DNA of 64,000 nucleotides, taken from assembly GCF_044385915.1 (NCBI RefSeq), contig NZ_JBISCC010000113.1, positions 12,152 to 76,151 on the forward strand. The letters are read 5' to 3'. The stretch comes from Thalassobellus citreus (GTDB taxonomy: Bacteria; Bacteroidota; Bacteroidia; Flavobacteriales; Flavobacteriaceae). The position numbers and the translations under genes were made by a program. The notes beneath the pieces are model-generated. The model ran no database searches, was not told where the DNA came from, and worked only from the letters and a program-made list of their open reading frames with translations. Positions 4,385-43,445 of this stretch are shown piece after piece; the first letter of the stretch is position 1; each line of letters begins with the position of its first letter.

Positions 4385-4406
4385 TGCGCAATTATTTTGC
4401 GTAGTT
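4385..4406. promoter_or_regulatory. Palindromic operator (copy 1 of 4) overlapping the -33 region of the rtcB-1 promoter. Divergent to the HD/WYL operon.
   Basis: Reverse complement reads AACTACGCAAAATAATTGCGCAGATTGGTTAAATATTTG. It matches the cassette at 38953, 41212 and 43421, each followed 6-7 nt later by TAAATATTTG-like -7 box. Confidence 0.6.
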
Positions 4407-4442
4407 TAAAATAATCACTAAATTTCTCAAAAAATTATTTAG

Positions 4443-5060
4443 ATGGGTTTAAAAGAGAGGTTTTATCAAGTGCTTAGTTGTTGGATTGACAATGAAACTT
4501 TTATTGGGCAACAATGGGAAGAATTATCTGAAAAATACACACAATCTTTTAGAAAATACCATAATCTAAATCATCTACAAGAACTCTTCAAGTATTTTGA
4601 TGCGTATAAGAATGAATTAGAACACCCTAATGAGATGGCTTTCTCCATTTTCTATCATGATATTATTTATAGTATTTGGAGTAAGAAGAACGAATTGAAT
4701 AGCGCTAAATTGGCTACTGAGTATTTGTTGAATTCTGCTTTAGATGATAGTGGTATCGAGCGTGTTTTTAACCTAATTATGGTAACCAAAAACCATACGC
4801 CCAATAAAAATAAGGATGAAAAATGGATGATAGATTTTGACATTGGCATTCTTGGTCAACCATACGAAACTTATTTACAATATACACAGCATATCAGAGA
4901 TGAATATGCTGCTATTCCTAACTCCGTGTATAAAAAAGGCAGAAAAAAGGTATTGAGTCATTTTTTAAATAAAAGTAAAATATACCAAACGGATACCTTT
5001 TATAATTTATTTGAAATGAATGCTAGAAATAATATTAAAAAAGAACTTGACACCCTGTAA
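4443..5060 (+). CDS. HD-superfamily metal-dependent phosphohydrolase (COG4339-like)
   Basis: YHNLNHLQEL and FYHDIIY blocks typical of small HD proteins. The stop overlaps the start of the WYL gene (TAATG). Confidence 0.45.
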   Translation: MGLKERFYQVLSCWIDNETFIGQQWEELSEKYTQSFRKYHNLNHLQELFKYFDAYKNELEHPNEMAFSIFYHDIIYSIWSKKNELNSAKLATEYLLNSALDDSGIERVFNLIMVTKNHTPNKNKDEKWMIDFDIGILGQPYETYLQYTQHIRDEYAAIPNSVYKKGRKKVLSHFLNKSKIYQTDTFYNLFEMNARNNIKKELDTL

Positions 5061-6082
5061 TGGCATTAAATAAAAACGCATTAATACGTTATAAAACGAT
5101 AGATAAATGTCTACAAAACCATTACAAACAATGGACTTTAGATGATTTAATTGAAGCTTGTTCTGATGTTCTATATGAATATGAGGGAAGGGAGATTAAT
5201 GTTAGTAAACGCACTGTACAATTAGACATTCAAATGATGCGCAGCGATAAGCTTGGTTATAATGCTCCTATAATTGTTTATAATAAGAAGTTTTACAAAT
5301 ATGAAAATGAAGGTTATTCTATAACTGATATTCCTTTGAACGAAAATGACATGAATGTTCTTTCGGAAACTGTTGAGATGCTAAAACAGTTTAAAGATTT
5401 TTCTCTTTTTTCTGAATTAGGAGGCATTATACAGCGTTTGGAAGACAAGGTTTATACTGAAAAGACTCACCAGTCTGCCATCATTCATTTGGATAGGAAT
5501 GAAAAACTAAAGGGCTTGGAACATTTAGATATTTTATACCAGGCTATTATTAAAAAGATGGTTCTTAGGATTAGATACCAATCTTATAAGGCTAGAGAAG
5601 CTTCTGAAATTATTTTTCACCCTTTCATTTTAAAAGAATTTAATAATCGTTGGTTTTTAATAGGGAGACCAGGAGTAGAGGCGAAAAAGTCAATCGTTAC
5701 TTTTGCTTTAGATAGAATAGTTTCTATTGATTATGATACAACAATCACATACAAAAATGACAACTTCAATGGTGATAAATATTATAAAGATGTTATTGGG
5801 GTTACTGTTTCAAATATCCGCGCTGAACGCATCCAGTTTTGGGTTGACAAGAAAAATGCTCCGTATGTAATGACTAAGCCTTTTCACGATTCGCAAAGGG
5901 TCATAAAACAAACTGATGATGGTGTTATCTTCAATATTTTTGTGCAAATTAATTTTGAACTTGAGCGTATGATTTTAGGTTTTGGAGATTCTATTGAGGT
6001 TTTAAAGCCTAAAAAACTTAGGGGTAGGATGCAGCAAAAATTGGAAAAGGCTGCTGGTTTTTATCTGAAAGACCAGACTTAA
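5060..6082 (+). CDS. HTH-WYL-WCX transcriptional regulator (WYL-1)
   Basis: N-terminal wHTH. WYL-like core YQSYKAR..FHPFILKEFNNRWFLIGR. Paralog of the N-terminal 330 aa of ORF 37194..38915. Sits beside the RNA-repair operon. Confidence 0.7.
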   Translation: MALNKNALIRYKTIDKCLQNHYKQWTLDDLIEACSDVLYEYEGREINVSKRTVQLDIQMMRSDKLGYNAPIIVYNKKFYKYENEGYSITDIPLNENDMNVLSETVEMLKQFKDFSLFSELGGIIQRLEDKVYTEKTHQSAIIHLDRNEKLKGLEHLDILYQAIIKKMVLRIRYQSYKAREASEIIFHPFILKEFNNRWFLIGRPGVEAKKSIVTFALDRIVSIDYDTTITYKNDNFNGDKYYKDVIGVTVSNIRAERIQFWVDKKNAPYVMTKPFHDSQRVIKQTDDGVIFNIFVQINFELERMILGFGDSIEVLKPKKLRGRMQQKLEKAAGFYLKDQT

Positions 6083-6104
6083 TTATCTCAAAAATTATTT
6101 ATAA

Positions 6105-41570: not shown

Positions 41571-41760
41571 TATCGGTCGTGGGTTCGAATCCCACTTCTG
41601 CAAATGCAGAATAGTTCAGTTTGGTTAGAACAATAGATTCAATTTGTAGGTTCGAGTCCTACCAAGATCAAAGGATCTTGTGGCGAAACGGTAAACGCAC
41701 TGTATTTAGGTTACAGCAATTGAAATGGACTTAAAATCCATCTTTAATCAAAGAAGGTTA
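41571..41760 (+). ncRNA. Array of tRNA-like fragments and hairpins. Either a tRNA-mimic ncRNA or decayed tRNA/att remnants.
   Basis: Orphan T-arm plus acceptor 3' strand at 41579..41603. Complementary acceptor strand TGCAGAA plus Gly-like D-arm at 41605..41631. Duplicate of the tRNA-Tyr T-arm at 41646..41662. Hairpin CAAGATC-aaag-GATCTTG at 41663..41680. tRNA-Leu-like D-arm plus anticodon arm (loop TTTAGGT) at 41681..41716. Anticodon-like hairpin at 41725..41741. No complete cloverleaf. Confidence 0.4.
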
Positions 41761-42143
41761 ACTTTTAAAATAGACCACCAAGTGCGTCACACTTTAAATG
41801 GCAAAAACAAAGTGAACTAAAACTAGCAAAGGCAATTTATTGCTTAAGCAGTCCAGAAAACACCTTGACATACACAGGTATTAAAAGTTGTTTTAGGTTT
41901 TCTTTTTAAAGATTCATTATTCAGTAAGTGATTCTGCAAATAAGCAGTTTTAAAATTGATTAATCATCTACAAAACAAGACTTAAAAACACTTAAAATCA
42001 GTTGTATGTCCGTCGTTAGAAAGATGGTTTTCTTTTGCTTTGTTTTAATAACAAATAGCCATTCTCAAAAAGAGGATTCTATTATAAATGTTTAACAGTT
42101 CTGAAGTAAGAAGTAAAAACAAAAGAACAAAAAATTAGAAATC

Positions 42144-43244
42144 ATGAAAAGAGTAAGAATTCATGCAGGTATTGTAGGTTTAGTGTTTAAAAACGGTAAT
42201 TATGCACGCGTAATTACAGAAGGAAAGCACTGGATAAACTTTAGAGAGCAAGTTATAAAATACGATTTAACTCAAACTTTCAACGCACCAAAAGCATTAG
42301 AAATCTTACTTAAAGATCAAGCTTTGGCAGACATGTTAACGGTTATAGAAGTAAAGGATAATGAGATTGTTTTAGTTTACGAAAACAAAAATTTCAAACG
42401 TGTATTAACCGCAGGTCGTTATACCTTTTGGAATAACTTGATCGATTATAAATTTGTAACTGCAGATTTGAGTAAAATCAAAATCTCGGAAGATATAAAC
42501 AAAACCTTGTTTAGCAATGCACAATTACGCCCATACATTCGTGCATTTGAAGTTGCAGCTTACGAAAAAGCAGTTTTAATTATTGACGATGTGTTTGTTA
42601 AAACCCTTGAACATGGCACATACCATTTCTGGAGAAACGAGCAAACCATTAAAATCGCAAAAGCAGATATGCGTCAGTTGCAATTAGAAATCGCTGGTCA
42701 AGAATTATTAACTAAAGACAAAGCAACCGTTCGTATTAACTTTTATGCACAATATAAAGTCACAGCAATCGAAACTGCTTTAATGCGTAACAAAGAATAC
42801 GAAAAGCAATTGTACATTACATTACAATTGGCATTACGCGCATTTATTGGAGCTTACTCTTTAGATGAATTGTTAGAGCAAAAGGAAACAATTGCCGAAG
42901 CCGTTTTAAAAGATGTAAAAACACAAGCCAATAAATTAGGTGTCGATGTGTTACATGCAGGCATTAGAGATGTCATTTTGCCAGGCGATATGAAAGATAT
43001 CATGAACCAGGTTTTAATTGCATACAAAAAAGCGCAAGCCAATGTAGTAACAAGACGTGAAGAAACAGCCTCCACTAGAAGCTTGTTAAATACCGCGAAA
43101 TTAATGGAAGACAACACCATGTTGTTCAAATTAAAAGAAATGGAATATGTTGAGAAAATAGCCGATAAAATTGGCGAGATTACAGTTGCAGGAAACGGCA
43201 ACGTCATCGAACAATTAAAAGATATATTCTCTGTAAATAAGTAA
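42144..43244 (+). CDS. SPFH/band-7 domain protein (copy 2)
   Basis: MKRVRIHAGIVGLVFKNGNY..GKHWINF SPFH N-terminus. Length 366 aa. Confidence 0.65.
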   Translation: MKRVRIHAGIVGLVFKNGNYARVITEGKHWINFREQVIKYDLTQTFNAPKALEILLKDQALADMLTVIEVKDNEIVLVYENKNFKRVLTAGRYTFWNNLIDYKFVTADLSKIKISEDINKTLFSNAQLRPYIRAFEVAAYEKAVLIIDDVFVKTLEHGTYHFWRNEQTIKIAKADMRQLQLEIAGQELLTKDKATVRINFYAQYKVTAIETALMRNKEYEKQLYITLQLALRAFIGAYSLDELLEQKETIAEAVLKDVKTQANKLGVDVLHAGIRDVILPGDMKDIMNQVLIAYKKAQANVVTRREETASTRSLLNTAKLMEDNTMLFKLKEMEYVEKIADKIGEITVAGNGNVIEQLKDIFSVNK

Positions 43245-43420
43245 GGCTATGGCGTACCCCAAACCAGAAAAAGGTTTGGGTCGCGCTTTCCGCTATATCT
43301 TTTGCAAAAAAAGCAAAAGGATGCCGCATCAATCGCTTACGCAGGCATACTTGCTTTCTATTTGCGTCATTCTAAACGTGTTTTAGAATCACATAAATAT
43401 ATTATTTTAAAAGAAAAAAC

Positions 43421-43445
43421 AACTACGCAAAACTATTGCGCAATA
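43421..43445 (+). promoter_or_regulatory. Palindromic operator (copy 4) plus -7 box upstream of rtcB-2
   Basis: aactacgcaaaactattgcgcaata then tac then TATAATATTTG. Lies 39 nt before the ATG. Confidence 0.6.

Follow-up and report, generated by a model that had tools for sequence, protein, structure and literature searches.

The window analysed here, a stretch of 64,000 nucleotides from Thalassobellus citreus, contains four copies of a 36-bp module, hereafter the cassette, in which an inverted-repeat predicted binding site (operator) is joined to a promoter. The features are given below in window coordinates.

695..4279, minus strand: operon behind cassette 1, with rtcB-1 (2882-4279), a CCA-adding/HD enzyme (1446-2825) and an RlaP nucleotidyltransferase (695-1441)
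4286..4367, minus strand: leader RNA motif, copy 1 (model R1, 85.5 bits); GGAAUCAU..., hairpin 1, GUAG, 10-bp hairpin 2
4368..4375, minus strand: -7 box of the rtcB-1 promoter, AAATATTTG type; predicted start, the G at 4363
4385..4403, minus strand: operator 1, TACGCAAAATAATTGCGCA, 19-bp inverted repeat
4419..4426, plus strand: -7-like box TAAATTTC of the divergent u205/WYL-1 promoter, 19 nt past the TTTG embedded in operator 1
4443-5060, plus strand: u205, 205-aa ORF without family match
5060-6082, plus strand: WYL-1, wHTH-WYL-WCX regulator, 340 aa
37194..38915, minus strand: WYL-2, wHTH-WYL-WCX regulator with a C-terminal PhyH-type dioxygenase, 573 aa
38956..38991, plus strand: cassette 2, operator TACGCAAAAACATTGCGTA (38956-38974), -7 box (38984-38991)
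39009-39587, plus strand: u192, behind cassette 2
39943-40662, plus strand: PrfH, conserved neighbour
40667-41200, plus strand: TPR protein, conserved neighbour
41215..41250, plus strand: cassette 3, operator (41215-41233), -7 box (41243-41250); predicted start 41255
41251..41338, plus strand: leader RNA motif, copy 2 (R1, 71.4 bits)
41357..41440, plus strand: tRNA-Tyr (GTA), predicted to be transcribed from cassette 3
41441..41670, plus strand: Y-RNA-like structured RNA, with a UUGACU stem domain and a YrlA-type tRNA mimic (T-arm, hairpin, D-arm)
42144..43244, plus strand: Band-7/SPFH gene
43424..43459, plus strand: cassette 4, operator (43424-43442), -7 box (43452-43459); predicted start 43464
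43484..44893, plus strand: rtcB-2, behind cassette 4

Four cassettes and their genes

Direct reading and a pattern search gave four exact matches to ACTACGCAAAANNWTTGCGYA in the window, at 4385-4405(-), 38954-38974(+), 41213-41233(+) and 43422-43442(+), against ~0.1 expected (dinucleotide-preserving shuffles averaged 0.10 matches and never exceeded 1); when up to three mismatches were allowed window-wide, the sole extra match came from site 4 matching itself as a palindrome. In site 2 the two arms of the 19-bp core, TACGCAA-N5-TTGCGYA, are exact inverted copies of each other; in sites 1, 3 and 4 they differ by a single mismatch (TTGCGCA), and in 4/4 copies TTTG starts exactly 14 nt past the core, that is, after a gap of 13 nt (4368-4371 on the minus strand, 38988-38991, 41247-41250 and 43456-43459). 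An earlier note on this DNA had described four copies of a perfect or near-perfect inverted repeat, and both points were confirmed. Its statistic for the 8-mer TACGCAAA, about six copies against about one expected and all at these loci, was wrong in detail: the window holds 8 copies against 2.5 expected, a count reached by 2 of 100 shuffles, and only 4 of the 8 lie inside cassettes, those at 11064, 11131, 11856 and 32909 being unrelated.

According to Pfam and NCBIfam assignments, site 1 is flanked by rtcB-1 and the divergent u205/WYL-1 operon, site 2 by WYL-2 and the 192-aa ORF u192, and site 4 is upstream of rtcB-2; site 3 lies upstream of tRNA-Tyr and the tRNA-like RNAs. The positions ahead of both rtcB genes and the tRNA-Tyr/tRNA-like transcript were thus as first described, and so was the divergent intergenic placement beside both WYL genes, with the refinement that u205 separates WYL-1 from site 1. 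As the WYL genes are on the divergent side, the layout is compatible with the putative autoregulation that the note had expected.

The flanks of both rtcB copies comprise WYL, u205, CCA/HD enzyme, RlaP and Band-7 genes. The PrfH and TPR genes belong to the cluster, yet no cassette was found upstream of them. RtcR or RtcA domains were not detected in the genes flanking both rtcB copies, in a scan of the window's ORFs up to ~17 kb and from ~32 to 48 kb. NrtR, named in the note as another possible binder, belongs to a separate neighbouring ADP-ribose system.

Predicted promoter geometry on both strands

For the predicted starts, -7 box placement was borrowed from a flavobacterial start-site map in which TAnnTTTG occupies positions -12..-5 (PMC9723704). 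The operator is then centred at ~-31 and spans from ~-40 to -22, with a constant 9 bp between it and the [A/C]AnnTTTG -7 box downstream. The forward promoters, which face the repair genes, have no -33 element, AAAA being found at the place of the -33 TTG in all cassettes. Read on the plus strand, operator 1 holds the -33 TTTG (4396-4399) of the divergent u205/WYL-1 promoter, and cassette 2 holds on its reverse strand that of the WYL-2 promoter; these predicted divergent promoters (TTTG at -33, 19 nt, then TAnnTTT) look complete, with their TTTG inside the operator.

The same geometry is seen in related genomes. Among 112 cassettes the A of the -7 box is kept in 95% and its first T in only 5%, TTTG itself being a search criterion; C0, A8, A9, A12 and A30 (the A of TAnnTTTG) are conserved though outside the search pattern. 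We also used 135 operator sites from 80 genomes fetched through the WYL-1 protein, which were not chosen for having a box: the gap to TTTG is exactly 13 nt in 118 of them and 14 nt in 12, TTTG at the fixed gap in both orientations was found in none of the 135, and the 13-nt gap is invariant over the 118 sites, cassettes without a divergent gene included. TTG is enriched 19-20 nt upstream of TAnnTTTG-type boxes in these loci. The fixed spacing between operator and box proposed earlier therefore holds, and the box resembles the -7 type, its sequence being [A/C]AnnTTTG and not a full TAnnTTTG (the note had given the element as TAnnTATTTG); the palindrome does cover the -33 position, at which the forward promoters lack any element. 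This absence points to activation rather than to simple repression. In Bacteroidota the -33 element is needed less strictly than the -7 element, so its absence alone is no proof of activator dependence.

Conservation and associated RNAs in Bacteroidota

Conservation of the cassette in relatives had been put forward as a check, and it was found: the strict core is present in 66 of the 80 loci retrieved with WYL-1 orthologues; in most related genomes the operator precedes the start codon of WYL (or of u205-WYL) by 36-40 bp, and variant operators were reached via leader RNA matches at loci without the strict core. A motif-first metagenome scan gave at least 120 contigs with a cassette and none in viral contigs. 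Of 122 cassettes in this search, 96 lie within 3 kb of a core RNA-repair or WYL gene, and 12 further ones have a recurrent associated family. Downstream of cassettes we found RtcB, RlaP, Ro60/TROVE, Rnl1-like ligase, PNKP phosphatase, Barstar and tRNA genes, as well as the Y-RNA-like RNA and Band-7, the Band-7/SPFH gene lying 300-1500 nt behind the cassette in 22 of 25 related loci. The genes behind the cassettes are thus overwhelmingly of RNA repair, also in the motif-first search, which did not presuppose it, in agreement with the RNA-repair regulon first suggested. These sequence comparisons support the occurrence of a WYL-linked operator-promoter cassette across Bacteroidota.

Two structured RNAs accompany the cassettes. 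The 83-nt 5' leader RNA, which shows strong covariation, is unreported; its copy 2 is closed by a 5'/3' stem reaching ~41356. The Y-RNA-like RNA scored 40.4 bits against RF02553, below the Rfam gathering threshold of 69, although the order of T-arm, hairpin and D-arm and the UUGACU stem are present, with covariation; it may act like a Y RNA, as a putative relative below the threshold for YrlA/RF02553 membership. A gene for a Ro60 partner (TROVE) was not detected in the window.

The repeat might instead be a structural or selfish element without operator role (a terminator hairpin, a REP- or MITE-like repeat, or a copied promoter fragment). A simple terminator scan does flag sites 3 and 4 on the minus strand, with a hairpin followed by a T-run; however, the sense strand has no T-run after the repeat, no converging gene is found on the minus strand, only 3 pairs of the stem are G-C, and by promoter geometry the repeat is upstream of both predicted starts, so it would not be transcribed. 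Moreover, orthologous positions are kept across Bacteroidota families and restricted to RNA-repair contexts, and the window has no further copies. We regard this explanation as extremely improbable.

Another possibility is that a different regulator, encoded elsewhere, binds the palindrome, the adjacent WYL genes being only targets of the regulon, and indeed sites 3 and 4 (2 of the 4 cassettes in the window) have no adjoining WYL gene. Against this, 57 of ~100 assessable cassettes of the motif-first sample have a WYL or u205-WYL gene as their divergent neighbour, and a WYL gene downstream of a cassette is very rare (2 of 140); in length, symmetry and TACG-N11-CGTA frame the operator agrees with the site of DriD, a WYL activator discussed below; and the WYL wHTH and the operator core are both almost invariant across genera. 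A regulator from elsewhere is therefore quite unlikely in our opinion.

WYL regulators and proposed control

Both WYL-1 and WYL-2 matched Pfam PF13280 and PF25583 (WYL, then WCX) above cut-offs. They are 54% identical overall and ~85% identical in the wHTH, with essentially the same recognition helix; this near-identity suggests the same operator for both. The fusion of WYL and PhyH in WYL-2 was a further find beside the cassettes. The AF2 model displays a winged HTH of three helices and a beta-hairpin (residues 4-81, pLDDT 75-93) and has low confidence in residues 91-150, the linker/three-helix-bundle, which is the region contacting polymerase in DriD. Full-length Foldseek comparison returned DriD (6.5e-12), PafBC (1.1e-11), CapW (6.5e-8) and BrxR (1e-6), and a profile search of the PDB placed DriD first and then PafB, both ahead of BrxR. 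The lead of DriD/PafBC over CapW/BrxR in these searches by sequence and fold is small, with identities of 12-19%; on the model and these searches, the closest solved relatives would be the activators DriD and PafBC.

DriD, the SOS-independent DNA-damage activator of Caulobacter crescentus, has the same wHTH-WYL-WCX architecture and is the best structural and profile match. Its site, ATACGAC-N7-GTCGTAT, is a pseudo-palindrome of ~20 bp in the same frame as the cassette operator, overlaps an absent -35 at a constant distance from the -10 and serves the bidirectional driD promoter, so that one site also serves the regulator gene, as cassettes 1 and 2 do; site and downstream element are a constant 8-9 bp apart (9 bp in the cassette), and the upstream element is missing in both (PMC13004042). 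The differences are the phylum, the -33/-7 instead of -35/-10 sigma-A grammar, the inner half-site bases (CAA here, AC in DriD), the RNA-repair instead of DNA-damage regulon, the two paralogous regulators here, one fused to a dioxygenase, and a sequence identity of 15-19%; the DriD ligand is ssDNA, ssRNA being bound only weakly. In the case of PafBC, the mycobacterial DNA-damage activator and another strong structural match, WYL activation also takes place at promoters without a normal -35. PafBC consists of two paralogous WYL proteins, as WYL-1 and WYL-2 are, which makes a WYL-1/WYL-2 heterodimer a possibility. The PafBC site is not known to be a simple palindrome; the clear inverted repeat of the cassette suggests stand-alone dimer binding. 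DriD, unlike PafBC, binds its target site without polymerase (PMC13004042).

Kinship with DriD/PafBC, the missing -33 element and the divergent TTTG lead us to favour ligand-dependent activation plus autoregulation; we judge it somewhat better than an even chance that the cassettes are operators plus sigma-A promoters of a WYL-controlled, ligand-activated RNA-repair regulon across Bacteroidota. A dimer of WYL-1 and/or WYL-2 would bind the 19-21-bp inverted repeat CTACGCAA-N5-TTGCGYAG. Since the operator sits where the -33 TTG is absent, the ligand-activated regulator would take the place of the missing contact in recruiting RNA polymerase, as DriD does at -35-less promoters in Caulobacter. Because the same repeat holds the TTTG 19 nt upstream of the TAnnTTT box before the WYL gene, its occupancy would also set the regulator's own expression. 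The signal may be an RNA-damage-derived nucleic-acid fragment bound by the WYL domain, and the predicted outputs are RtcB-1 with the CCA-adding/HD enzyme and RlaP; RtcB-2; u192; and a transcript with the leader RNA, a spare tRNA-Tyr and the Y-RNA-like RNA, probably continuing into Band-7.

The main rival to activation uses the same operator and the same WYL proteins as repressors of the CapW/BrxR type: an unliganded dimer on the -33 region would block polymerase, and a damage-derived ligand would de-repress repair and WYL genes together. CapW (CBASS) and BrxR (BREX) share the domain architecture and the ~20 bp palindromic sites, their genes adjoin the operons that they control, and they are repressors of divergent or adjacent operons released by ssDNA (PMC11662680; PMC9122601). 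In addition, comparative genomics has predicted a negative role for the WYL factors found in ADP-ribose and RNA-repair neighbourhoods (PMC9503650), and the operator covers core promoter DNA on both strands. On the other hand, the forward promoters, which lack both the -33 TTG and the first T of the -7 box, seem so weak that repression would hardly be needed, and the invariant distance between operator and box fits polymerase contact better than simple occlusion. CapW and BrxR control defence systems, not RNA repair, they match less well in structure than the activators DriD and PafBC do, and the BrxR operator is downstream of its promoter, a different geometry. We therefore consider repression a minority prospect, though a real one.

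A bolder version of the activation model is that WYL-1 and WYL-2 are the first WYL factors sensing damaged RNA rather than ssDNA (e.g. tRNA/rRNA fragments with 2',3'-cyclic phosphate ends), activating, by replacing the -33 contact of Bacteroidota's unusual sigma-A, a dispersed regulon of RNA ligases, Y-like tRNA mimic, spare tRNAs and leader RNA, with PhyH adding an input. We hold this only tentatively, with the odds against it: the characterised ligands of wHTH-WYL-WCX regulators are all ssDNA, DriD binds ssRNA only weakly and poly-U RNA gave no detectable CapW binding, thus an RNA ligand is a guess. Under such damaged-RNA sensing, inducible spare tRNAs such as tRNA-Tyr would replace those destroyed by anticodon nucleases, the 5' leader RNA, common to mRNA and non-coding transcript, may be a feedback or decoy element, and the dioxygenase on WYL-2 may provide a second, oxidative or alkylation-related input.

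The rsr-yrlBA-rtcBA operon of Salmonella and E. coli, controlled by RtcR, shares with the cassettes the RtcB ligase, a Y-RNA-like tRNA mimic as output, a regulator gene divergent from the repair genes and, in some contigs, Ro60 behind the cassette. RtcR senses damaged tRNA fragments through its ligand-binding domain (PMC7790460), and CARF and WYL domains have been described jointly as ligand-binding regulators (PMC4012209). RtcR is a CARF-AAA+ enhancer-binding protein at a sigma-54 promoter, whereas here a WYL factor would act at sigma-A promoters, no rtcA was seen next to rtcB, and the genes are distributed among several cassettes at two loci and do not form one operon. To our knowledge, RtcR with sigma-54 is the only worked-out case in which sensing of RNA damage switches on RtcB-type repair.

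The cassette seems to be for RNA repair what the DriD switch is for DNA damage, and it offers a handle for the whole phylum: a 21-bp site, two candidate regulators, predicted starts and a gene list that ties RNA ligases, Ro60 and Y-like RNAs, Band-7, RNase immunity (Barstar) and back-up tRNA genes to one signal. Both the leader RNA and the Y-like RNA are novel structured RNAs open to direct testing. If true, the proposal would extend the activation mode of DriD/PafBC to Bacteroidota, where activators of -33/-7 promoters are little studied, possibly with a WYL domain tuned to RNA.

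The cassettes of the window and the genes around them

Direct reading and a pattern search bore out the claim of the earlier note that one module is present in four copies: the same 36-bp cassette, a putative inverted-repeat operator followed by a -7-type promoter box, was found at all four places proposed. Exact matches to ACTACGCAAAANNWTTGCGYA, which contain the operator, are located as follows.

4385-4405 (-), site 1
38954-38974 (+), site 2
41213-41233 (+), site 3
43422-43442 (+), site 4

The chance expectation for ACTACGCAAAANNWTTGCGYA in shuffled sequence was 0.10 matches, even when up to 3 mismatches were allowed. 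The core TACGCAA-N5-TTGCGYA is a perfect repeat at site 2 and is one base off at sites 1, 3 and 4, the gap from core to TTTG being exactly 13 nt at 4/4 sites. The 8-mer count had to be corrected: instead of about six copies against about one expected, all within the cassette loci, TACGCAAA occurs eight times against 2.5 expected. Four copies lie outside the cassettes (11064, 11131, 11856 and 32909) and were rejected as further cassettes; one of them is part of a different inverted repeat, TGCGTA-N5-TACGCA. A reading of the palindromes as terminators was also rejected.

Domain searches defined the gene content at site 1 (locus A) and at sites 2 to 4 (locus B).

Locus A, leftward from site 1: operon RlaP, CCA-adding/HD enzyme, RtcB-1
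Locus A, rightward from site 1: u205, then WYL-1 (WYL and WCX domains)
4443-5060 (+): u205, a 205-aa ORF, first gene of the WYL-1 operon, recurring in 19 loci
37194-38915 (-): WYL-2, leftward from site 2, a WYL regulator (WYL and WCX domains) fused to a C-terminal PhyH-type Fe/2-oxoglutarate dioxygenase
39009-39587 (+): u192, a 192-aa ORF behind the cassette at site 2, recurring in 15 loci
Locus B, rightward from u192: PrfH (TIGR03072, 219 bits), then a TPR protein
Locus B, continued: site 3, ~900 nt of non-coding RNA genes, Band-7 gene
43275-43351 (-): Flavo-1 RNA (RF01705, 52.5 bits), between Band-7 and the cassette at site 4, on the opposite strand
Locus B, end: site 4, then RtcB-2

Neither u205 nor u192 has a match in Pfam or NCBIfam, and the two proteins show no kinship to each other. 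Flavo-1 is absent from 11 related loci, thus its position beside site 4 is probably incidental. PrfH (ribosome-rescue release factor H) and the TPR protein (39943-41200, +) are conserved and frequent neighbours of the regulon, and PrfH adjoins neither rtcB gene in the window; both were rejected as regulon members, 27 of 29 PrfH genes having no cassette upstream. Between u192 and prfH, within 39655-39850 (+), there is a cassette-like -7 box (TTAAATCTTTGCAAC) that has no operator and is followed by ~150 nt ending at a hairpin and T-run (~39813-39850); this stretch may be a small independent transcript.

NrtR was rejected as the palindrome binder; it is encoded in a separate operon on the other side of WYL-1.

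6105-11866 (-): NrtR operon (NrtR, Band-7, unknown, Macro, Macro, unknown, ADP-ribosylglycohydrolase, DUF4291), abutting WYL-1
11846-11862: inverted repeat TGCGTA-N5-TACGCA, distinct from the cassette operator, just upstream of nrtR
11879-16169 (-): 980-aa DUF6493/DUF7824/DUF7825 protein paired with a 448-aa SWIM zinc-finger protein, upstream of nrtR

Conservation of the cassette in other genomes

WYL-1 has a 100% identical counterpart among the NCBI proteins of Thalassobellus citreus (Flavobacteriaceae), the species from which the window derives. Orthologues of WYL-1 at 66-91% identity are found in many genera, and the conservation of the cassette in relatives was checked in 80 genomic loci retrieved via this protein. 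The strict operator core is present in 66/80 of these protein-anchored loci; those lacking it have variant operators such as CTGCGCAAAAAGACTGCGTAG, detected via the leader RNA downstream (see below). Most copies stand 36-40 bp upstream of a WYL start codon, with the TTTG side facing away from the WYL gene. For the spacing, 135 operator sites selected without reference to any box were used, and the gap between operator and TTTG was 13 nt in 118 of them and 14 nt in 12, every other gap occurring at most 5 times. Positions that had not been selected for are conserved as well, namely the C before and the G after the core, A8, A9, T10 and A12 centrally, and an A four bases ahead of TTTG; the conserved central positions make the operator centre directional, and its direction always agrees with that of the promoter.

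In a motif-first search, metagenome contigs were scanned for the 36-bp pattern alone (at least 120 contigs). Among the matches listed, a core RNA-repair or WYL gene lay within 3 kb of 96 of 122 cassettes and a recurrent associated family was found at 12 further ones, the remaining 14 being mostly on 1-4 kb fragments; the pattern had no match in viral contigs.

Over all loci, RtcB lies directly behind the cassette in 93/160 copies (within 300 nt). Other genes in this position are RlaP, Ro60/TROVE, T4 Rnl1-like ligase, PNKP phosphatase, Barstar, DUF6331, DUF434/DUF5616, several unknown families and tRNA genes, together with recurrent 775-aa, 591-aa and 296-aa proteins which have no Pfam match. 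A Band-7 gene follows 300-1500 nt behind a cassette in 22/25 loci. WYL genes stand behind a cassette in only 2/140 cases, their usual place being that of divergent neighbour. TROVE, Rnl, PNKP, Barstar and the other cassette-associated families of other loci are not encoded in the window.

Structured RNAs behind the cassettes

Many cassettes are followed, from the predicted transcription start onwards, by an 83-nt element which we call the leader RNA. It consists of (G)GAAUCAUAAA, a variable hairpin, GUAG and a 10-bp hairpin 2 with loop AACGAGGAG; no family in Rfam corresponds to it. A covariance model built from 51 training copies gave 62 matches in 1.57 Mb, all directly behind a cassette; since the training copies were chosen for having a hairpin, it is the 20 matches outside the training set that carry the weight. 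In hairpin 2, 99.4% of cells are paired, with compensatory changes at 10/10 pairs, versus 29-53% paired in slid controls. Besides the two copies of the window, 60 further ones occur in the related loci L001-L080. A likeness of the hairpin-2 loop (GUCG-AAC(A/G)AGG-AG) to 16S rRNA 1494-1506 was set aside as too little conserved.

4286-4367 (-): leader RNA, 5' UTR of rtcB-1 (covariance model)
41251-41338 (+): leader RNA, start of the site-3 transcript (covariance model)
41357-41440 (+): tRNA-Tyr(GTA), behind site 3
41441-41670 (+): Y-RNA-like structured RNA, 230 nt, kept in at least 19 loci

Six independent loci (the window, L023, L117, L123, L172 and L184) have tRNA-Tyr(GTA) immediately behind a cassette, and one locus, L050, has an array of eight tRNAs (Lys, Ser, Asn, Cys, Tyr, Gly, Trp, Arg); cassette tRNAs may be damage-inducible spares against anticodon nucleases. 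The Y-RNA-like RNA shows compensatory changes at 25/53 predicted pairs, and combines a UUGACU-bearing stem domain with a tRNA mimic whose parts are arranged as in YrlA (T-arm, hairpin, D-arm). Its score with the Rfam YrlA model is 40.4 bits, under the threshold of 69, and 11 related loci gave no YrlA match at the gathering threshold; no Ro60 gene is encoded in the window. The leader RNA and the Y-RNA-like RNA are two new structured RNAs accompanying the regulator system.

The WYL regulators and the promoter geometry

WYL-1 shares 54% identity with residues 1-335 of WYL-2; because identity rises to ~85% over the first 80 residues and the recognition-helix sequence is the same, both proteins should read the same site. 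The fusion to PhyH is shared by at least 10 further loci, the majority from Fluviicola and Crocinitomicaceae. The structure model of WYL-1 displays a winged helix-turn-helix and, beyond a linker of low model quality, a WYL and a WCX domain. Foldseek placed it closest to the activators DriD (E-value 6.5e-12) and PafBC (1.1e-11), followed by the repressors CapW (6.5e-8) and BrxR (1e-6), and a sequence-profile search gave the same ranking DriD, PafB, BrxR, with CapW not among the matches; PDB codes of these solved relatives were confirmed against the source papers. Repression of the CapW/BrxR type is the main alternative to the activation considered below.

In a flavobacterial start-site map, TAnnTTTG occupies -12 to -5 (PMC9723704). 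Applied to the cassettes, this map predicts that transcription starts 5 nt beyond the final G of TTTG and that the operator covers about -40 to -22, with its midpoint at -31. For sites 1 to 4 the predicted starts are the G at 4363 (-), the A at 38996, the G at 41255 and the G at 43464. Upstream of TAnnTTTG boxes in the related loci, TTG is enriched at a distance of 19-20 nt. Flavobacterium promoters have a 19-bp spacer, in agreement with this enrichment. Forward promoters, on the repair-gene side of the operator, have AAAA at the expected -33 TTG position, and their box likewise lacks its first T. On the divergent side, where no more than 36-40 nt separate the operator from the start codon of WYL or u205, the same AAAA is TTTG on the other strand and a conserved TAnnTTT(C) box stands exactly 19 nt further; in the divergent u205/WYL-1 promoter of the window these are TTTG 4396-4399 and a TAnnTTT-type box at 4419-4426. 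Since the operator AAAA reads TTTG 19 nt from the box, the WYL promoter appears to hold its -33 within the operator, and the repair promoters appear to have no -33 at all.

A comparable layout of site and promoter is known for DriD, which recognizes ATACGAC-N7-GTCGTAT at promoters without a recognisable -35 and at a constant distance to the -10, and also binds the bidirectional driD promoter (PMC13004042). The cassette operator has the same TACG-N11-CGTA frame, and its core-to-box distance is 9 bp versus 8-9 bp from DriD core to -10 hexamer, as estimated from published oligonucleotides; however, the proteins, although of one family, share 15-19% identity and belong to different phyla with different promoter grammars. 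The output resembles that of the RtcR regulon, but RtcR, sigma-54 and RtcA are lacking around the two rtcB copies. The cassette system is a member of neither. WYL factors alongside RNA-repair and conflict operons are known in general terms (PMC4012209, PMC9503650); in the full-text literature on WYL and RtcB or RNA repair, whose coverage is incomplete and may hide an earlier description, we found none of the operator, regulon, promoter geometry or leader RNA.

As for the signal, known ligands of the WYL regulator family are ssDNA; DriD binds ssRNA weakly, and binding of poly-U RNA by CapW is not detectable. For systems of this kind, WYL and CARF sensors that respond to cyclic-ended RNA fragments have been proposed (PMC9503650). 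The best-supported mechanism is that a WYL protein would activate the repair promoters in a ligand-dependent manner and would autoregulate the WYL genes. Overall, the interpretation of the earlier note, an operator and -7 box cassette of a putative RNA-repair regulon, is supported: the cassette is very probably a WYL operator-promoter module of such a regulon, and we lean, with clearly less assurance, towards the full statement in which this WYL cassette would activate RNA repair.
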